Positions 9,747-20,300 are shown, counted from the first letter of the stretch. The stretch: 64,000 nucleotides of DNA from Escherichia coli (GCF_003334305.1 NZ_QOWS01000026.1), one strand, 5' to 3'. The notes: a model not told the origin generated them from the letters alone. Made by a program: numbers and translations.

Positions 9747-10061
9747 ATGATCCGCAAAGCCTTTGTCATGCAGGTTAACCCCGACGCTCACGAAGAGTAT
9801 CAGCGTCGGCATAACCCCATCTGGCCGGAACTGGAAGCAGTGTTGAAATCTCACGGTGCGCATAACTACGCCATTTACCTCGACAAAGCGCGTAATCTGC
9901 TGTTTGCCACGGTAGAGATTGAATCTGAAGAGCGCTGGAATGCGGTTGCCAGTACTGATGTTTGCCAACGTTGGTGGAAATATATGACCGACGTCATGCC
10001 CGCGAACCCGGATAACAGCCCGGTGAGTAGCGAACTGCAAGAAGTGTTTTACCTGCCGTAA
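9747..10061 (+). CDS. rhaM: L-rhamnose mutarotase
   Basis: 104 aa [33 protein letters not shown]..., recognised as RhaM (YiiL). Confidence 0.93.
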
Positions 10062-10068
10062 TTGCCTA

Positions 10069-10104
10069 ATGTGCCGGAGACGCCTCCGGCACAATATTTT
10101 TAAT
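10069..10104 (+). terminator. rhaBADM operon terminator
   Basis: Perfect stem gtgccggag/ctccggcac followed by aatattttta. Confidence 0.7.
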
Positions 10105-10373
10105 TTCGATTTGAAAAATAAACATATTACACCTTCAGTTAATATATCCCGGTAACTTATATTTCCCCGATGCATTGTGAGTAAATCACAAAAATAATGA
10201 ATAACTCATTAATGATTCATGTGGTTTATTTAAATAACCATTATGTGCATTACTCCGCAAATCTGACCTTTCACTCTGTCTCAAATTGTCATTGTTTACC
10301 GACATATCGCCTCTCATCACTTAATCGCTCCACCATTACAATTGATTAAAATATATTTCATGGAGTCCGATTA

Positions 10374-10820
10374 ATGGCAGCTCTTACTGCAAGCTGTATT
10401 GACCTGAATATTCAGGGCAATGGCGCTTATTCCATTCTGAAGCAGTTGGCGACAATGGCGTTACAAAACGGTTTTATCACCGACTCACACCAGTTCCTGC
10501 AAACCCTGCTGCTGCGCGAAAAAATGCACTCTACTGGATTTGGTTCCGGCATCGCCGTGCCGCACGGTAAAAGCGCCTGCGTTAAACAACCGTTCGTGTT
10601 ATTCGCCCGCAAAGCGCAGGCTATTGACTGGAAAGCCAGCGATGGCGAAGACGTCAATTGCTGGATCTGCCTCGGCGTGCCGCAAAGCGGCGAAGAGGAT
10701 CAGGTCAAAATCATCGGTACACTGTGTCGCAAAATTATCCACCAGGATTTTATTCACCAACTGCGACGAGGCGACGCCGACCAGGTGTTTGCCTTGTTAA
10801 ATCAAACCCTCAGCTCATAA
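10374..10820 (+). CDS. frvA: PTS fructose-like IIA component
   Basis: 148 aa ORF MAALTASCIDLNIQGNGAYSILKQLA...; PTS EIIA fold with His in GSGIAVPHGK. Confidence 0.92.
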   Translation: MAALTASCIDLNIQGNGAYSILKQLATMALQNGFITDSHQFLQTLLLREKMHSTGFGSGIAVPHGKSACVKQPFVLFARKAQAIDWKASDGEDVNCWICLGVPQSGEEDQVKIIGTLCRKIIHQDFIHQLRRGDADQVFALLNQTLSS

Positions 10821-10830
10821 GGAAGTGGCG

Positions 10831-12282
10831 ATGGAGTCATCCTTACGTATTGTCGCGATCACCAACTGCCCCGCCGGGATCGCTCACACCTACATGGTGG
10901 CGGAAGCCCTGGAACAGAAAGCCCGTTCTCTCGGCCATACCATAAAAGTGGAAACTCAAGGGTCCAGTGGCGTTGAAAACCGCTTATCCAGCGAAGAGAT
11001 TGCCGCTGCCGATTACGTCATTCTCGCTACCGGGCGTGGCCTGAGCGGCGATGACCGGGCGCGGTTTGCCGGGAAGAAGGTTTATGAGATTGCCATCTCC
11101 CAGGCGTTGAAAAATATCGACCAGATTTTCAGTGAATTACCAACAAACTCGCAGCTTTTTGCCGCAGATAGCGGCGTGAAGCTCGGCAAACAGGAAGTAC
11201 AAAGCGGCAGCGTAATGAGCCACCTGATGGCGGGCGTCTCTGCGGCGCTGCCGTTTGTTATCGGTGGCGGTATCCTGGTGGCGCTTGCCAACATGCTGGT
11301 GCAGTTCGGCCTGCCGTATACCGATATGTCGAAAGGCGCGCCGTCGTTTACCTGGGTGGTTGAATCCATCGGTTATCTCGGCTTCACCTTTATGATCCCC
11401 ATCATGGGCGCTTATATTGCCTCGTCGATTGCCGATAAACCCGCTTTCGCTCCGGCGTTTCTGGTTTGCTATCTGGCGAATGACAAAGCCCTGCTCGGCA
11501 CCCAGTCAGGTGCGGGATTCCTCGGCGCGGTGGTGCTGGGGCTGGCGATTGGCTATTTCGTCTTCTGGTTCCGTAAAGTGCGCCTTGGCAAAGCATTACA
11601 ACCGCTGCTCGGTTCAATGCTGATCCCGTTCGTTACTCTGCTGGTTTTCGGCGTGCTCACTTACTACGTTATCGGACCGGTAATGTCCGACCTCATGGGC
11701 GGGTTGCTGCACTTCCTGAACACCATTCCTCCATCAATGAAATTTGCGGCAGCGTTTCTGGTCGGTGCGATGCTGGCGTTCGATATGGGCGGCCCCATCA
11801 ATAAAACCGCCTGGTTCTTCTGCTTCTCACTGCTGGAAAAACACATTTATGACTGGTACGCCATCGTCGGCGTTGTCGCGCTGATGCCGCCCGTCGCGGC
11901 GGGTCTTGCGACGTTCATTGCGCCCAAACTGTTTACCCGACAGGAAAAAGAGGCTGCCAGTAGTGCCATTGTGGTCGGTGCCACAGTCGCAACCGAACCG
12001 GCTATACCTTACGCTCTGGCAGCTCCGTTGCCGATGATTACCGCCAATACGCTGGCGGGTGGCATTACCGGCGTGCTGGTGATCGCTTTCGGAATCAAAC
12101 GTCTGGCACCTGGTTTGGGTATCTTTGACCCGCTGATCGGCCTGATGTCGCCGGTGGGTTCGTTTTATCTGGTGCTGGCGATTGGCCTCGCGCTGAACAT
12201 TTCATTCATTATCGTCCTGAAAGGATTGTGGTTACGCCGCAAAGCGAAAGCCGCGCAACAGGAGCTTGTCCATGAACATTGA
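10831..12282 (+). CDS. frvB: PTS fructose-like IIBC component
   Basis: 483 aa from ATG 10831 (MESSLRIVAITNCPAGIAHTYMVAEALE...); IIB Cys motif then polytopic IIC domain. Confidence 0.92.
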   Translation: MESSLRIVAITNCPAGIAHTYMVAEALEQKARSLGHTIKVETQGSSGVENRLSSEEIAAADYVILATGRGLSGDDRARFAGKKVYEIAISQALKNIDQIFSELPTNSQLFAADSGVKLGKQEVQSGSVMSHLMAGVSAALPFVIGGGILVALANMLVQFGLPYTDMSKGAPSFTWVVESIGYLGFTFMIPIMGAYIASSIADKPAFAPAFLVCYLANDKALLGTQSGAGFLGAVVLGLAIGYFVFWFRKVRLGKALQPLLGSMLIPFVTLLVFGVLTYYVIGPVMSDLMGGLLHFLNTIPPSMKFAAAFLVGAMLAFDMGGPINKTAWFFCFSLLEKHIYDWYAIVGVVALMPPVAAGLATFIAPKLFTRQEKEAASSAIVVGATVATEPAIPYALAAPLPMITANTLAGGITGVLVIAFGIKRLAPGLGIFDPLIGLMSPVGSFYLVLAIGLALNISFIIVLKGLWLRRKAKAAQQELVHEH

Positions 12283-13342
12283 GTTACTGCAACAGTTGTG
12301 CGAAGCCAGCGCCGTCAGCGGCGATGAACAGGAAGTTCGCGACATTCTGATAAACACGCTGGAACCTTGCGTTAATGAAATCACCTTTGATGGTCTGGGC
12401 AGCTTTGTTGCCCGTAAGGGGAATAAAGGTCCAAAAGTTGCCGTTGTCGGGCATATGGATGAAGTCGGCTTTATGGTCACCCACATCGACGAGAGCGGTT
12501 TTCTGCGCTTCACCACCATTGGCGGCTGGTGGAATCAGTCGATGCTCAACCACCGGGTAACCATACGCACACACAAGGGATTTAAAATCCCTGGTGTGAT
12601 TGGTTCCGTCGCGCCTCATGCGTTAACGGAAAAGCAAAAGCAACAACCGCTGTCATTTGATGAGATGTTCATTGATATTGGCGCGAACAGTCGCGAAGAA
12701 GCGGAAAAGCGCGGCGTTGAAATTGGCGATTTTATTAGCCCGGAAGCCAATTTTGCCTGCTGGGGCGAAGATAAAGTAGTCGGAAAGGCGCTGGATAACC
12801 GCATCGGCTGCGCGATGATGGCGGAGCTACTACAGACAGTAAATAACCCAGAAATTACGCTGTACGGCGTTGGCAGTGTGGAAGAAGAAGTTGGGCTACG
12901 CGGGGCACAAACCTCGGCGGAACACATTAAACCGGATGTGGTGATTGTGCTGGATACCGCTGTCGCAGGTGATGTTCCGGGCATTGATAACATTAAATAC
13001 CCGCTGAAACTGGGCCAGGGGCCGGGGCTGATGCTGTTTGACAAGCGCTACTTCCCCAACCAGAAACTGGTAGCAGCGTTTAAAAACTGTGCCACGCAGA
13101 ATGATTTACCGCTGCAATTTTCCACCATGAAAACCGGAGCGACGGATGGCGGGCGCTACAACGTGATGGGCGGCGGGCGTCCGGTTGTCGCGCTGTGTCT
13201 GCCAACTCGTTATCTGCACGCCAACAGCGGTATGATTTCAAAAGCCGATTACGATGCTCTGCTCACGCTGATACGGGGTTTTCTGACCACCTTAACTGCG
13301 GAGAAAGTCAACGCGTTTAGCCAGTTCCGTCAGGTGGATTAA
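12272..13342 (+). CDS. frvX: M42-family peptidase/endoglucanase-like FrvX
   Basis: 356 aa from ATG 12272 (MNIELLQQLCEASAVSGDEQEVRDIL...), overlapping frvB stop by 11 nt. Confidence 0.92.
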   Translation: MNIELLQQLCEASAVSGDEQEVRDILINTLEPCVNEITFDGLGSFVARKGNKGPKVAVVGHMDEVGFMVTHIDESGFLRFTTIGGWWNQSMLNHRVTIRTHKGFKIPGVIGSVAPHALTEKQKQQPLSFDEMFIDIGANSREEAEKRGVEIGDFISPEANFACWGEDKVVGKALDNRIGCAMMAELLQTVNNPEITLYGVGSVEEEVGLRGAQTSAEHIKPDVVIVLDTAVAGDVPGIDNIKYPLKLGQGPGLMLFDKRYFPNQKLVAAFKNCATQNDLPLQFSTMKTGATDGGRYNVMGGGRPVVALCLPTRYLHANSGMISKADYDALLTLIRGFLTTLTAEKVNAFSQFRQVD

Positions 13343-15090
13343 TGCTAAACGAACGCCAGTTAAAGATTGTCGATCTGCTGGAGCAACAGCCGCGCACGCC
13401 TGGTGAGCTGGCGCAACAGACTGGCGTTTCAGGCAGGACCATCCTGCGTGATATTGACTATCTCAACTTTACCCTTAACGGCAAAGCCCGCATTTCCGCC
13501 AGTGGTAGTGCGGGCTATCAGCTGGAAATCTTCGAGCGCCGCAGCTTTTTTCAGTTGCTGCAAAAGCACGATAACGACGATCGGCTGCTGGCACTGTTAT
13601 TACTGAATACCTTTACTCCCCGTGCGCAACTCGCCTCGGCGCTTAATTTGCCAGAAACGTGGGTCGCAGAGCGTCTGCCCCGGTTAAAACAGCGTTATGA
13701 ACGCGCTTGTTGCCTGGCCAGCCGCCCCGGTTTGGGCCATTTCATTGATGAGACAGAAGAGAAGCGCGTTATCTTGCTGGCGAACTTGCTGCGCAAAGAT
13801 CCGTTTTTAATTCCGCTGGCGGGCGTAACACGAGACAACCTTCAGCATTTATCCACGGCCTGCGACAACCAACACCGCTGGCCGCTCATGCAGGGTGATT
13901 ATCTCTCCAGCCTGATTCTGGCGATTTACGCCCTGCGTAATCAACTGACCGATGAGTGGCCGCAATATCCCGGTGACGAGATAAAACAAATCGTTGAACA
14001 TAGCGGTCTGTTTCTTGGTGATAACGCTGTAAGAACCCTGACAGGTTTGATAGAGAAACAGCATCAGCAAGCGCAGATAATTTCTGCCGATAATGTGCAG
14101 CGGTTGCTGCAAAGGGTGCCGGGCATCGCGTCATTGAATATTATTGATACGCAGCTGGTTGAGAACATTACCGGGCATTTATTACGTTGCCTTGCCGCAC
14201 CGGTGTGGATTGCTGAGCACCGCCAAAGCAGCATGAATAACCTGAAAGCCGCCTGGCCTGCGGCCTTTGATATGAGTCTGCACTTTATTACGCTACTGCG
14301 TGAACAGCTCGATATTCCCCTTTTCGACAGCGATCTGATCGGTTTGTATTTTGCCTGTGCGCTGGAACGGCATCAAAACGAACGCCAGCCGATCATTTTG
14401 CTCTCGGACCAGAACGCGATTGCCACTATTAATCAGCTCGCCATTGAGCGCGATGTTTTACATTGTCGGGTGATTATTGCCCGTAGCTTAAGCGAACTTG
14501 TTGCCATTCGCGAAGAGATTGAGCCGTTATTGATCATTAACAACAGCCATTATTTACTGGATGACGCGGTAAATAATTACATCACCGTAAAAAATATCAT
14601 TACGGCTGCCGGTATCGAACAAATAAAACATTTTCTGGCGACGGCATTTATTCGCCAACAGCCGGAGCGTTTTTTCTCTGCCCCCGGAAGTTTTCATTAT
14701 TCGAATGTACGCGGTGAAAGCTGGCAACATATTACCCGGCAAATTTGTGCGCAATTAGTCGCACAACACCATATTACCGCCGATGAAGCACAACGCATCA
14801 TCGCCCGCGAAGGCGAAGGTGAAAACCTGATTGTTAATCGCCTCGCCATCCCACATTGCTGGAGCGAACAGGAGCGACGTTTTCGTGGATTTTTTATTAC
14901 CCTCGCCCAACCAGTTGAGGTGAATAACGAAGTCATTAACCATGTCTTGATCGCCTGCGCCGCCGCCGATGCGCGTCATGAGCTAAAAATATTTAGCTAT
15001 CTGGCAAGCGTATTGTGTCAGCATCCGGCAGAGGTTATTGCCGGGTTAACAGGATATGAGGCATTTATGGAGTTACTTCACAAGGGGTGA
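13342..15090 (+). CDS. frvR: frv operon transcriptional regulator
   Basis: 582 aa ORF MLNERQLKIVDLLEQQPRTPGELAQQTGVSGRTILRDIDYL..., N-terminal HTH; start overlaps frvX stop (TAATG). Confidence 0.92.
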   Translation: MLNERQLKIVDLLEQQPRTPGELAQQTGVSGRTILRDIDYLNFTLNGKARISASGSAGYQLEIFERRSFFQLLQKHDNDDRLLALLLLNTFTPRAQLASALNLPETWVAERLPRLKQRYERACCLASRPGLGHFIDETEEKRVILLANLLRKDPFLIPLAGVTRDNLQHLSTACDNQHRWPLMQGDYLSSLILAIYALRNQLTDEWPQYPGDEIKQIVEHSGLFLGDNAVRTLTGLIEKQHQQAQIISADNVQRLLQRVPGIASLNIIDTQLVENITGHLLRCLAAPVWIAEHRQSSMNNLKAAWPAAFDMSLHFITLLREQLDIPLFDSDLIGLYFACALERHQNERQPIILLSDQNAIATINQLAIERDVLHCRVIIARSLSELVAIREEIEPLLIINNSHYLLDDAVNNYITVKNIITAAGIEQIKHFLATAFIRQQPERFFSAPGSFHYSNVRGESWQHITRQICAQLVAQHHITADEAQRIIAREGEGENLIVNRLAIPHCWSEQERRFRGFFITLAQPVEVNNEVINHVLIACAAADARHELKIFSYLASVLCQHPAEVIAGLTGYEAFMELLHKG

Positions 15091-15091
15091 A

Positions 15092-15120
15092 CTGTGTCGG
15101 ATGCGCCGCATCCGACACTG
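15092..15120. terminator. Bidirectional terminator hairpin between convergent frvR and yiiG
   Basis: Perfect inverted repeat gtgtcggatgcg/cgcatccgacac immediately after frvR stop and before yiiG stop. Confidence 0.6.
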
Positions 15121-15139
15121 CATTTATCATCAAAAACGT

Positions 15140-16180
15140 TTAACGCAGGCTATTATAGTCATCAACCATTTCGTTGTACTCGCGTAATGCTCTCGGGAAA
15201 GAGTCGTCGACCATCCAGCTTGAGTTTGCGTCCTGCAGTTGCTCTTTATCCCAGTCAGAGTACGGGACTTTATCTCTGACGCGGCGAACGTATTTTTTAG
15301 CCTCGAGTTGATACTGGCCTGCCGAATTAATAAACGAGAAATTCATGCCGCCTTTATCCGCTTCTTTGGCCTGCGCCACCAGCGTTTCCAGTTCAGACAC
15401 TTTCTTCATTGCCGCTTCTGCATCAAACTTATCTTGCGATATCAGGTTATTAATTTGTTTCGCTGAAATCATGACTGCCAGAGAGTAATAGTGGAATGTT
15501 TTCCCTTCTCTTTCTTCAATATTTTTCAGTTCCGCAAGCTGGCGCTTATCGTTAATTTCCTGAATCGCCGCATGATAAGATTCTGCTACAGGTTCAAAGG
15601 CTTCCAGATTTTTTAAGAATGTCTGGTGCAGCGTTTTCCCTTTCGCAAACGCATCGTCTTTATAATTTTCCTGGGTGTAATATTTATCCATTTCGTTAAT
15701 GGTATTACCCAACGCCACGGCAGCATCGATATAACTCACCGCCACGCCATCAATTGGTTGCAGCGCAGGCGTTAACGCCACAGCACTTTTTACGCCTTTT
15801 TCACACTCAGCGAGGTTGGATTCACTAATGCCGTAGATGCCATAAACAGTACGCTCTTCACCGGTAGGCCCCTGTTTAAAATCTTTCAGCCAGTCAGCAT
15901 AACGCGCCAGACTGCTCTGTACAGGGATCTGTAACTTGTTATAGCACTTGATATAGACATCCATTTTTTCGTCGAAAACCGCTTGTTCATCGACCACCGG
16001 TTGCGCAGGTGTTTCAGGTTTAGCTTCTGCTTTTGCAACGGGAGCTTCAGGAGCTGGTGCGGCAGGTTGACTATTGGCAGGCGGGGGCGTTTCTGTTTCG
16101 GCTTTTTTATCATCACAACCCGTCAGACCGAGGGCCATGATGGCGACTATAATAGCGGAAGATAATAAATTCCTTTTCAT
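15140..16180 (-). CDS. yiiG: DUF3829-type lipoprotein YiiG
   Basis: 346 aa ORF MKRNLLSSAIIVAIMALGLTGCDDKK...; lipobox LTGC, then a Pro/Ala-rich linker. Confidence 0.9.
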   Translation of the reverse strand: MKRNLLSSAIIVAIMALGLTGCDDKKAETETPPPANSQPAAPAPEAPVAKAEAKPETPAQPVVDEQAVFDEKMDVYIKCYNKLQIPVQSSLARYADWLKDFKQGPTGEERTVYGIYGISESNLAECEKGVKSAVALTPALQPIDGVAVSYIDAAVALGNTINEMDKYYTQENYKDDAFAKGKTLHQTFLKNLEAFEPVAESYHAAIQEINDKRQLAELKNIEEREGKTFHYYSLAVMISAKQINNLISQDKFDAEAAMKKVSELETLVAQAKEADKGGMNFSFINSAGQYQLEAKKYVRRVRDKVPYSDWDKEQLQDANSSWMVDDSFPRALREYNEMVDDYNSLR

Positions 16181-16288
16181 TTAATTGCCTTATAAATATA
16201 TAGATAAGAGAATGAACATAATAAATGAAAAAAGAAAACACCACTACACGCGTTTTATTTATAAATAAAATAATAAAATTCACGAAAT

Positions 16289-16332
16289 GAATAAGTCCTG
16301 CAATTTAATATATATCGCAGGACTTATTTTAA
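16289..16332 (-). terminator. fdhD terminator hairpin
   Basis: Inverted repeat aataagtcctgc/gcaggacttatt with AT-rich flanks directly downstream of fdhD stop. Confidence 0.5.
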
Positions 16333-17359: not shown

Positions 17360-20300
17360 ATGCAGGTCAGCAGAAGGCAGTTCTTTAAGATCTGCGCTGG
17401 CGGTATGGCAGGCACCACGGCAGCGGCACTGGGTTTTGCACCCAGCGTAGCGCTCGCGGAAACCCGGCAGTATAAACTGCTGCGCACCCGCGAAACCCGT
17501 AATACCTGCACCTATTGTTCCGTAGGCTGTGGGCTGTTGATGTACAGCCTCGGTGACGGAGCAAAAAACGCCAAAGCATCTATCTTCCATATCGAAGGCG
17601 ATCCGGATCACCCGGTCAACCGCGGTGCACTTTGTCCGAAAGGCGCTGGCCTGGTGGATTTCATCCACTCCGAAAGCCGTCTGAAGTTTCCGGAATACCG
17701 TGCGCCAGGTTCTGATAAATGGCAGCAAATCAGTTGGGAAGAGGCGTTTGATCGCATCGCCAAACTGATGAAAGAAGACCGCGATGCTAACTACATTGCG
17801 CAAAACGCCGAAGGCGTGACTGTTAACCGCTGGCTCTCCACCGGGATGCTGTGTGCTTCCGCGTCGAGTAACGAAACCGGCTATTTAACGCAAAAATTCT
17901 CCCGCGCGCTGGGTATGCTCGCGGTCGACAACCAGGCGCGTGTCTGACACGGACCAACGGTAGCAAGTCTTGCTCCAACATTTGGTCGCGGTGCGATGAC
18001 CAACCACTGGGTCGACATCAAGAACGCCAACCTCGTCGTGGTGATGGGCGGTAACGCCGCTGAAGCTCACCCGGTCGGGTTCCGCTGGGCGATGGAAGCC
18101 AAAATTCACAACGGCGCGAAGCTGATTGTGATCGATCCTCGCTTTACGCGTACGGCGGCGGTAGCTGACTACTATGCCCCTATTCGTTCCGGTACTGACA
18201 TTGCTTTCCTGTCAGGCGTATTGCTGTACCTGCTGAACAATGAAAAATTCAACCGCGAATACACCGAAGCCTATACCAACGCAAGCCTGATAGTGCGTGA
18301 GGATTACGGCTTTGAAGATGGCCTGTTCACCGGCTACGACGCGGAAAAACGCAAGTACGATAAATCCTCCTGGACTTATGAACTGGACGAAAACGGCTTC
18401 GCCAAACGCGATACCACGCTGCAACATCCGCGCTGCGTGTGGAACTTGCTGAAACAGCACGTTTCCCGCTACACGCCAGATGTGGTTGAAAACATCTGTG
18501 GTACGCCAAAAGACGCGTTCCTGAAAGTCTGCGAATACATCGCAGAAACCAGTGCTCACGATAAAACTGCCTCGTTCCTCTATGCCCTCGGCTGGACGCA
18601 ACACTCCGTTGGTGCGCAAAACATTCGTACGATGGCGATGATCCAGCTGCTGCTCGGCAATATGGGGATGGCCGGCGGCGGCGTTAACGCCCTGCGCGGT
18701 CACTCCAATATTCAGGGGCTGACGGACCTGGGGCTGCTGTCGCAGAGTCTGCCAGGTTACATGACGCTGCCAAGCGAGAAGCAGACCGATCTGCAAACCT
18801 ACCTTACCGCCAACACGCCAAAACCGCTGCTGGAAGGCCAGGTAAACTACTGGGGCAACTACCCGAAATTCTTCGTCTCTATGATGAAGGCCTTCTTTGG
18901 TGATAAAGCGACGGCGGAAAATAGCTGGGGCTTTGACTGGTTGCCGAAGTGGGATAAAGGCTACGACGTCCTGCAATACTTCGAGATGATGAAAGAAGGC
19001 AAGGTCAATGGCTATATCTGCCAGGGCTTTAACCCTGTTGCCTCATTCCCGAACAAAAACAAAGTGATCGGTTGTCTGTCGAAACTGAAGTTCCTCGTCA
19101 CCATCGACCCGCTGAACACTGAAACCTCTAACTTCTGGCAGAACCACGGTGAGCTGAACGAAGTTGACTCGTCGAAGATCCAGACCGAAGTGTTCCGTCT
19201 GCCATCGACCTGCTTCGCAGAAGAGAACGGTTCAATCGTTAACTCAGGTCGCTGGTTGCAGTGGCACTGGAAAGGTGCGGACGCCCCGGGGATTGCGCTG
19301 ACTGATGGCGAGATCCTCTCCGGTATCTTCCTGCGCTTGCGCAAGATGTATGCCGAACAGGGTGGCGCGAACCCGGACCAGGTGCTGAACATGACCTGGA
19401 ACTACGCCATTCCGCATGAGCCGAAGTCGGAAGAAGTAGCGATGGAGAGCAACGGTAAGGCGCTGGCCGATATTACCGATCCGGCAACCGGTGCGGTTAT
19501 CGTCAAGAAAGGCCAACAACTTAGCTCGTTCGCCCAATTGCGCGATGACGGTACAACCTCCTGTGGCTGCTGGATTTTCGCCGGTAGCTGGACGCCGGAA
19601 GGCAACCAGATGGCGCGTCGTGATAACGCCGATCCGTCTGGCCTCGGTAACACGCTGGGCTGGGCATGGGCATGGCCGCTTAACCGCCGCATTCTGTATA
19701 ACCGCGCCTCCGCAGATCCGCAGGGTAACCCGTGGGATCCGAAGCGTCAGTTGCTGAAATGGGACGGCACTAAGTGGACCGGCTGGGATATTCCGGACTA
19801 CAGCGCAGCGCCTCCGGGTAGCGGCGTCGGGCCGTTTATCATGCAGCAGGAAGGCATGGGGCGTCTGTTTGCCCTCGATAAGATGGCGGAAGGTCCGTTC
19901 CCGGAACACTACGAGCCGTTTGAAACGCCGCTGGGAACTAACCCGCTGCATCCAAACGTTATCTCGAACCCGGCTGCACGTATCTTTAAAGACGACGCCG
20001 AAGCATTGGGTAAAGCCGATAAGTTCCCGTATGTCGGAACCACCTATCGTCTGACCGAGCATTTCCACTACTGGACCAAACACGCGCTGTTGAACGCGAT
20101 TTTGCAACCAGAGCAGTTTGTGGAAATCGGGGAGTCGCTGGCGAATAAACTTGGCATTGCCCAGGGCGATACCGTGAAAGTCTCCTCCAACCGTGGCTAT
20201 ATCAAGGCCAAAGCGGTGGTGACCAAACGTATTCGTACACTGAAAGTGAACGGCAAAGATATCGATACCATCGGTATTCCGATTCACTGGGGCTATGAAG

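Follow-up and report, generated by a model that had tools for sequence, protein, structure and literature searches.

The frvABXR operon of Escherichia coli, a phosphotransferase cassette with an embedded aminopeptidase gene and a possible role in importing sugar-amino-acid conjugates

The frvABXR operon occupies positions 10374-15090 of a 64,000-nucleotide stretch of Escherichia coli DNA (GCF_003334305.1 NZ_QOWS01000026.1), hereafter the window, and is the known, annotated operon of that name; the window itself holds nothing new. Over positions 10000-15300 the sequence is the same as that of E. coli H15 (100% identity), in which the RefSeq gene order is rhaM, frvA, frvB, frvX, frvR, yiiG, and the same genes are numbered b3901 to b3896 in K-12 MG1655 (frvABXR being b3900-b3897). 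The K-12 operon shares the four genes, their order and the chromosomal site between rhaM and yiiG, with 97.5% nucleotide identity over the operon, and differs only allelically, through a 13 bp indel and a few single-nucleotide polymorphisms in the distal leader. Reportedly first described in the 1990s through genome analysis, by Reizer and colleagues in 1994, frvABXR is an orphan phosphoenolpyruvate:sugar phosphotransferase system (PTS) of the best-studied bacterium, the substrate and embedded peptidase of which have been puzzling for three decades. Its genes are:

10374-10820, forward strand: frvA, 148 amino acids (aa), PTS enzyme IIA (EIIA) of the fructose/mannitol (Fru/Mtl) type
10831-12282, forward strand: frvB, 483 aa when started at the ATG, fructose-family PTS EIIB-EIIC
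12272-13342, forward strand: frvX, 356 aa, M42 (TET-type) metallo-aminopeptidase
13342-15090, forward strand: frvR, 582 aa regulator

Protein families were assigned by NCBIfam equivalog cut-offs, with Pfam searched in addition, and all four products score above the cut-offs of their own equivalogs. Together with the H15 and K-12 annotation, these matches bear out exactly the open reading frame (ORF) coordinates, gene identities and operon structure given in a preliminary description of the locus. Overlapping stop and start codons, also reported there, are found at the frvX/frvR junction, where TAATG gives a 1 nt overlap, but not at the other two: frvX (ATG at 12272) overlaps frvB (TGA at 12280-12282) by 11 nt, which is not strictly a stop/start, and a gap of 10 nt is read between frvA and frvB, the latter of which has an alternative GTG start at 10825. 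The overlaps, along with an AGGAG sited 8 nt ahead of the frvX ATG, confirm that the frv genes are translationally coupled.

FrvA exceeds the cut-offs of NF007389 (290 bits; cut-off 151) and TIGR00848, and its phospho-histidine motif, GIAVPHG with His64, conforms to G-x-A-x-P-H. FrvB exceeds those of NF008493 (1034 bits; cut-off 806), TIGR00829 and TIGR01427, and carries an EIIB cysteine, Cys13 in ITNCPAGIAHT, joined to an EIIC of the fructose type; outside Frv itself, its best matches include the mannosylglycerate transporter MngA. By motifs and profiles, therefore, the two are predicted to form a fructose-family PTS.

FrvX matches Pfam Peptidase_M42 (PF05343) over the full length of the domain (2e-102; model positions 1-292 of 292), NF007367 with 839 bits (cut-off 569) and the solved M42 enzymes 1vhe, 5ds0 and 1y0r with E values of 4e-87 to 1e-67. 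When aligned to 1y0r and 1vhe, it retains the metal and catalytic residues of the two-metal site (His61, Asp175, Glu205/Glu206, Asp228 and His316), which are invariant across FrvX, YpdE and SgcX, and judged by these residues it is probably a catalytically intact M42 aminopeptidase. Aminopeptidase activity of YpdE is known from the literature. One report mentions this activity, and notes both the mis-annotation of M42 enzymes as cellulases and the presence of three of them in E. coli (PMC3511314). All three paralogues lie within orphan PTS clusters in K-12 (frv, fryB-fryC-ypdF-ypdE-fryA and sgcXBCQAER); in the fry cluster, YpdE adjoins a second aminopeptidase, YpdF. One genome per species was scanned for M42 motifs, and the best 80 loci were searched for FrvR and for PTS proteins of the fructose (Fru), galactitol (Gat) and ascorbate (Asc) types; the only positives were six FrvX orthologues, of at least 64% identity.

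The fourth product, FrvR, scores 1051 bits against its NCBIfam equivalog (cut-off 426). Pfam recognises HTH_11 (8e-10) and PTS_EIIA_2, NF053736 (AcpB/EbpR/MafR) gives a sub-threshold match and comparison with solved structures gave no sequence-level match. An AlphaFold model was built from 29 sequences (mean confidence, pLDDT, of 85), and folds were compared by two methods including Foldseek. The protein divides as follows:

Residues 1-63: winged helix-turn-helix
Residues approximately 77-135: second winged helix-turn-helix
Residues approximately 139-345: helical region resembling PTS regulation domains (PRDs), with the invariant His279
Residues approximately 349-440: alpha/beta EIIB-like domain, with no Cys in its first loop
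Residues approximately 450-582: EIIA(Mtl/Ntr)-like domain, with the invariant His505 in the motif AIPHCW

The model aligns with MgaSpn, AtxA, an Enterococcus Mga-family protein and AcpB over about 490 columns (Foldseek E values of 2e-10 to 1e-5), while the EIIA domain is closest to EIIA-Ntr. The N-terminal winged helix of PRD-type regulators is present, as is the C-terminal EIIA(Mtl/Fru)-like domain with a conserved histidine that characterises the MtlR/LicR subclass; the EIIB(Gat)-like domain has no phosphorylatable cysteine, its first strand-loop reading IILLSDQNAIAT. His505, His279 and His76 are invariant among the homologues. The modelled fold is thus that predicted for PRD regulators of the Mga/AtxA and MtlR/LicR type, with an EIIA domain in addition, and by analogy FrvR may work as an activator in the manner of MtlR/LicR, full class membership being left aside. 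The family comprises 135 clusters when queried with the E. coli protein and 32 when queried with that of Listeria, and ranges over Enterobacterales, Listeria sensu lato and a few further contigs only. Recent duplication between FrvA and the EIIA domain of FrvR was considered and rejected, as BLASTP shows no similarity between them. Beside the full-length clusters stand several large ones of truncated E. coli FrvR (P0039, P0055, P0091 and P0100; 320-448 aa, up to 1,875 members), which may represent either contig-edge fragments or common truncations of frvR.

Upstream of frvA, the region 10105-10373 had been described as very AT-rich and hence consistent with silencing. Its composition is as claimed, at 32.0% GC against 50.5% for the window, and just 0.45% of 269 bp windows equal it in AT-richness. 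Nine comparable stretches nevertheless occur within the 64 kb, making this leader a normal extreme of E. coli intergenic DNA, not a singular anomaly; the spacer between yiiG and fdhD (16181-16332) is more AT-rich still, at 22% GC, which shows that spacers of this composition are nothing out of the ordinary here. The silencing interpretation, by contrast, has nothing specific behind it: the frv coding DNA, at 50-56% GC, does not resemble that of H-NS targets; the distal leader has replaced a porin gene in a strain-specific manner; the proximal leader has phylogenetically fixed dyads and a -10 element lacking a usable -35, as is typical of promoters that need an activator; and the 582 aa regulator is specifically predicted to be a PRD-type, PTS-controlled, activator-like protein. 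The literature yielded no H-NS data for frv, and silencing by H-NS is possible yet unsupported. The elements identified in this interval are:

10070-10093, forward strand: intrinsic terminator of the upstream rha operon (10 bp stem, 7 G-C pairs, T-run; terminator scan)
10244-10259: CRP-like dyad TGTG-N8-CGCA, 130 nt 5' of the frvA ATG, centred at about -97 from the proposed start
10287-10305: cassette-specific dyad TGTCA-N8-CGACAT, candidate FrvR operator, centred at about -53.5 (leader alignment)
10337-10342, forward strand: -10 hexamer TACAAT, of which TAnnAT is invariant in 14 aligned leaders
10362-10365, forward strand: frvA Shine-Dalgarno sequence GGAG, invariant in the enterobacterial alignment

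rhaM ends at 10061, just ahead of the strong terminator, which would insulate frv from rha transcription. The upstream regions of frvA were aligned from nine lineages at first and then from fourteen, spanning Enterobacterales and Listeria. At -129 to -131 from the ATG, eight of the nine enterobacterial leaders have TGTG-N8-CACA, the ninth having CGTG at the aligned position; the E. coli version has three mismatches to the ten specified bases of TGTGA-N6-TCACA, and the dyad is confined to Enterobacterales, being absent from the Listeria leaders. The second dyad is more widespread. TGTC-N10/11-GACA lies 86-88 nt 5' of the ATG in every Enterobacteriaceae lineage examined, and in three Listeria species it takes the form of a perfect repeat, TGTCAY-N7-GTGACA; its distance to the -10 hexamer is fixed at 32 nt in both groups, and 10287-10305 is the sole match in the window. 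This dyad accompanies the cassette even in a phylum without CRP, and is on that account the leading candidate for the operator of FrvR. The -35 position (10314-10319, TCATCA) matches TTGACA at three of six bases, and we infer a transcription start at around 10349. The proximal 170 bp are identical between the window strain and K-12.

Other candidates in the leader were tried and rejected. A consensus scan gave no sigma-70 promoter there, its single match in 5.5 kb (5.4 expected by chance) lying inside frvR; a search of Rfam for structured RNAs or riboswitches at E<=1 gave just a chance CRISPR-repeat match, again inside frvR; and a 50-codon ORF (10197-10349) was judged spurious, as it spans the conserved dyads and lies partly in a strain-variable stretch. 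The leader is best read as a putative activator-dependent, probably CRP-dependent, promoter beside a rearrangement scar.

The apparent scar is evident from comparison between strains. The operon is present at >=80% coverage in 4,185 of 5,426 complete E. coli genomes, and the rhaM-frvA interval (10062-10373; compare L002 1603-2997 and L003 2594-3988) exists in three states: a divergent gene for a RafY-like glycoporin together with frv, as in O157; frv alone, as in the window strain and K-12 (2,828 of the 5,426 genomes, with two leader sub-variants 88% alike); and, exemplified by IHE3034, the porin without frvABXR, which has been deleted. The feature that distinguishes the second state is:

10063-10185: distal leader of the porin-less (K-12-type) haplotype, with no alignment to the O157 locus (L002 1564 to 3286)

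These 123 bp stand in place of approximately 1.7 kb in O157-type strains, made up of the porin gene, which matches Pfam Porin_8 at 5e-152, and a 289 bp spacer; when compared with the porin locus, with the partner operon described below and with the other sequences gathered, they matched nothing significantly. The upstream flank thus appears to be the scar of a rearrangement. Strains with the rearranged locus also have yiiG annotated as a truncated or frameshifted pseudogene (L003 4342-5030; L004 7407-8048), and roughly 200 plasmid sites, presumably on raffinose plasmids, match the porin sequence. Within the operon, frvR is frameshifted in strain SW4848, and frvA and frvB have been mentioned as accessory genes in a lineage of sequence type 131 (ST131). 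The ratio of non-synonymous to synonymous substitution (dN/dS) of the frv genes is 0.04-0.16 between genera and 0-0.16 within E. coli, low values that imply purifying selection on all four and argue that frv, where present, is not a decaying pseudogene.

In other genera the cassette is found in different surroundings. A partner operon stands back-to-back with frvA in Citrobacter, Klebsiella, Buttiauxella, Superficieibacter and two further lineages:

L011 1704-6555 (also in L005, L008, L012, L019 and L022), divergent to frvA: partner operon of seven genes

These encode a PfkA-like kinase, PTS IIB and IIC components of the L-ascorbate family, a class II ketose-bisphosphate aldolase, an 89 aa helical protein with no family match, a IIA component and a 186 aa P-loop protein (GIPASGKST). 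Its promoter has a perfect CRP box, TGTGA-N6-TCACA. The possibility that the two operons share an operator was rejected, as TGTC-N10-GACA occurs on the frvA side only and the partner side has the CRP box instead; co-regulation of the partner operon by FrvR is therefore unsupported. The partner operon is decayed in Salmonella houtenae and absent in E. coli, Enterobacter, Trabulsiella and Hafnia; in the first three of these the cassette has no neighbouring sugar genes. The order A-BC-X-R recurs at unrelated chromosomal sites in Hafnia and contig L005. With the four genes intact at unrelated sites and the partner variable, the conserved mobile unit is A-BC-X-R, and frvABXR is a self-contained, horizontally mobile four-gene PTS cassette. 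Two of these loci hold further genes. In Buttiauxella, two genes for hexapeptide-repeat (Mac/LacA-like) acetyltransferases lie between the partner operon and frvA (L019 6713-7958), and in Klebsiella huaxiensis an insert between frvR and the fdhD side (L012 12109-19662) encodes a LevR-type sigma-54 activator, a mannose-family PTS, a GH88 unsaturated glucuronyl hydrolase and a KdgM porin.

The M42 scan also revealed a cassette in Listeria newyorkensis, with FrvB, FrvX and FrvR 77%, 64% and 35% identical to those of E. coli. Here an extra gene between frvX and frvR encodes a carbon-sulphur (C-S) lyase of the PatB/MalY family, which scores 362 bits against TIGR04350 (cut-off 340), has E. coli MalY as its best solved match (6e-102) and scores higher against MalY (345 bits) than against staphylococcal PatB (260 bits). 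The five-gene cassette recurs in L. fleischmannii and L. booriae, while contig L102 has in this slot a pyridoxal phosphate (PLP) enzyme of the class I/II aminotransferase fold (Pfam Aminotran_1_2), without an M42 gene. The slot enzymes dependent on PLP are encoded at:

L025 9122-10297
L100 7833-8987
L101 7820-8995
L102 2239-3405

The slot between transporter and regulator consequently holds an M42 gene alone in Enterobacterales, M42 and lyase genes in the three Listeria species and the gene for a PLP enzyme alone in L102. Both M42 aminopeptidases and C-S lyases require a free alpha-amino group on an amino acid. The interchange of enzymes that act on amino acids, in a cassette of otherwise minimal make-up, suggests a cargo composed of a sugar and an amino-acid or peptide moiety. 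Base composition was uninformative as to the direction of transfer between Listeria and Enterobacterales, the cassettes being near their hosts' GC content. Genes for a hexapeptide acetyltransferase and an alpha/beta-hydrolase lie near the cassette in L. fleischmannii (L100 2464-4688).

These findings suggest that the substrate is a sugar-amino-acid conjugate. The reading we prefer, to which we give an even chance, is that frv is a FrvR-activated, CRP-aided cassette that imports such a conjugate for cleavage by FrvX. When no substrate is available, phosphoryl groups from phosphoenolpyruvate would be relayed by EI and HPr to FrvA and FrvB, building up on FrvR at His505 and/or His279; phosphorylated FrvR would be inactive and the promoter silent, which would make the operon look cryptic in the laboratory. 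Transport of the substrate would drain phosphate from FrvA and FrvB, leaving FrvR dephosphorylated at its inhibitory site and able to bind the dyad at about -53 and recruit RNA polymerase, with help from CRP-cAMP. In the substrate, a sugar would be bonded to a single amino acid or a short peptide; FrvAB would import it and phosphorylate the sugar part, FrvX would remove the amino-acid part by hydrolysing the alpha-amide bond and the resulting sugar phosphate would enter central metabolism through housekeeping enzymes. In the mngRAB system of E. coli, a fructose-family PTS for 2-O-alpha-mannosyl-D-glycerate is paired with an intracellular hydrolase, MngB, and the place of MngA among the best matches of FrvB indicates that fructose-family PTS can carry conjugates. 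We know of no precedent for amide cleavage in a PTS pathway. A bolder version, which we put forward tentatively and consider rather doubtful, would make Frv the first PTS to serve specifically for covalent conjugates of a sugar with an amino acid or peptide, the bond perhaps running through cysteine; once uptake had phosphorylated the cargo, a lineage-specific enzyme module would strip off its amino-acid part.

Several observations weigh against import of a conjugate. Full-text searches found no frv substrate, regulator mechanism or H-NS control, only incidental mentions; in keeping with the preliminary description, which had called the substrate and the role of FrvX unclear, they returned no paper defining a substrate or reporting constitutive expression, no experiment tying Frv to any substrate, no assay of FrvX and no candidate compound. 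The operon is dispensable, being absent from approximately 22% of complete E. coli genomes (about 1,200 of 5,426). That FrvR and CRP bind the two dyads, and that transcription begins near 10349, is itself inferred. FrvR has PRDs too divergent for Pfam to recognise, a second canonical PRD histidine (His344) that is not invariant and no cysteine where an EIIB-like domain usually has one, so that its phosphorylation logic is borrowed from MtlR/LicR. Nor do M42 enzymes associate with PTS in general: none of the 74 other M42 loci in the scan (35-43% identity; Bacillota, Chloroflexi, archaea and Akkermansia) had Fru/Gat/Asc-type PTS genes within 8 kb, with a query set that would miss components of the Glc, Man and Lac families, and the link is thus specific to the clade of the six FrvX orthologues and not a property of the family. 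Finally, where the cassette stands back-to-back with the kinase, aldolase and second PTS, as in Citrobacter, Klebsiella, Buttiauxella and others, a plain ketohexose fits as well as a conjugate. Frv might then be a PTS for a fructose-, tagatose-, psicose- or sorbose-like sugar, with FrvX merely a co-transcribed accessory or moonlighting aminopeptidase. The family of FrvA and FrvB accords with this, as does the partner operon, since PfkA-like kinase and class II aldolase form the classic route for ketohexose phosphates, and the nearest relatives of FrvX outside the cassette are YsdC-like aminopeptidases that have no PTS neighbours. Though a serious rival, this reading seems to us unlikely, because frvX occupies the same slot, coupled on both sides, in every Enterobacterales cassette, even those without the partner operon, and evolves at a dN/dS of 0.09-0.15, and because the gain or exchange of another amino-acid-processing enzyme in Listeria and L102 would make little sense for a cargo devoid of amino acids.

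It could also be argued that frv in E. coli is an evolutionary relic, left over after a larger locus shed its partner genes, and that it is silenced by H-NS at its AT-rich leader and has no current role. The low GC content and want of a consensus promoter in the leader would fit such a history, as would the rearranged flank, from which the porin or partner operon has been lost, the deletion of the operon in so many genomes and the frameshift of frvR in at least one strain. In addition, chromatin immunoprecipitation on arrays (ChIP-chip) placed frvA among genes with altered RNA polymerase binding in an rpoZ mutant, in a list where the neighbouring entries are often prophage or putative genes (PMC5811629). 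This seems quite improbable, however, given the strength of purifying selection within E. coli, where FrvB is 100% identical in amino-acid sequence to that of O157 despite a dS of 0.135 and frvR has a dN/dS of 0.06; proximal promoter elements are the same as in K-12 and conserved across genera, the GC content of the coding DNA is unlike that of typical H-NS targets and FrvA protein has been detected by proteomics in K-12 grown in lysogeny broth (PMC9508795). A role for Frv as mainly a sensory or regulatory phosphorelay of the PTS-Ntr or Mga type, in which FrvAB would be the sensor and FrvR would control genes elsewhere, seems very remote. It would account for the best structural matches of FrvR being the global virulence regulators MgaSpn, AtxA and AcpB, and for the likeness of its EIIA domain to EIIA-Ntr, but the membrane domain of FrvB is complete and extremely conserved, the only dyad in the 64 kb precedes frvA and an enzyme gene is always present in the cassette.

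Downstream of the operon, one further feature was read from the sequence:

15094-15118: hairpin with a perfect 11 bp stem and GCC loop, between the convergent frvR and yiiG

Transcription of frvR and yiiG may end here, but the hairpin has no T-run on either strand, was not called in the terminator scan and does not qualify as a canonical intrinsic terminator. Further along, the ORF for the alpha subunit of formate dehydrogenase (17360-17947) stops after 195 codons. RefSeq has a full-length gene of 3,051 bp in H15, starting at the position that matches window 17360, and a split into 195 and 804 residues recurs in the gene calls of other genera. The stop is probably the known selenocysteine TGA.

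The comparative data make the preferred reading, import of a sugar-amino-acid conjugate under the control of FrvR, open to experiment at defined points. These are the candidate operator and -10 hexamer; two regulatory histidines, His505 and His279, the mutation of which should unlock the operon; and a class of substrates, sugar-amino-acid conjugates with a free alpha-amino group. Environmental Listeria provide a natural model, in which the cassette has an additional, informative enzyme. Were conjugates indeed imported, the range of compounds known to enter through PTS transporters would be widened, and a dedicated PTS with a module that removes the amino-acid part would offer a rationale for other unexplained pairings of PTS with peptidases or lyases in E. 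coli (fry, sgc and malXY).

Parallels with known systems concern both the regulator and the enzymes. FrvR resembles MtlR, LicR and ManR of Bacillota, and Mga, AtxA and AcpB, in its two winged helices, helical PRD region and EIIB-like domain; it further resembles MtlR/LicR in its C-terminal EIIA(Mtl)-type domain with an invariant histidine, and the frv promoter, with an operator-like dyad upstream and no -35, is like those served by such activators. It differs from MtlR/LicR-type regulators in the divergence of its PRDs, its single invariant PRD histidine (His279) and its cysteine-less EIIB loop. The fry and sgc clusters share with frv an M42 paralogue with the same metal ligands (YpdE and SgcX, 36% and 29% identical to FrvX) and an orphan PTS, but use other PTS families or components and other regulators, sgc being of the Gat type and fry having its own EI-HPr-EIIA and an extra, second aminopeptidase. 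MalY is encoded beside a PTS transporter gene, and malXY is likened to frv through the Listeria lyase, of which MalY is the best solved relative. A route reported in Staphylococcus hominis for Cys-Gly-conjugated thioalcohol precursors (PMC7385124) uses a peptidase and a PatB C-S lyase; cysteine conjugates are known to be broken down by a peptidase and then a PatB-type lyase, an order of events that the enzymes of the Listeria cassette call to mind. The E. coli frv operon differs from both in having no lyase gene, and a link between frv and cysteine conjugates would be an extrapolation from Listeria. Similar in overall plan are mngRAB and the phospho-beta-glucosidase systems, in which a transporter, a single hydrolase and a regulator likewise make up the whole of a minimal cassette; the frv hydrolase differs from theirs in being a metallo-aminopeptidase, not a glycosidase, and so the bond predicted to be cleaved is an amide.

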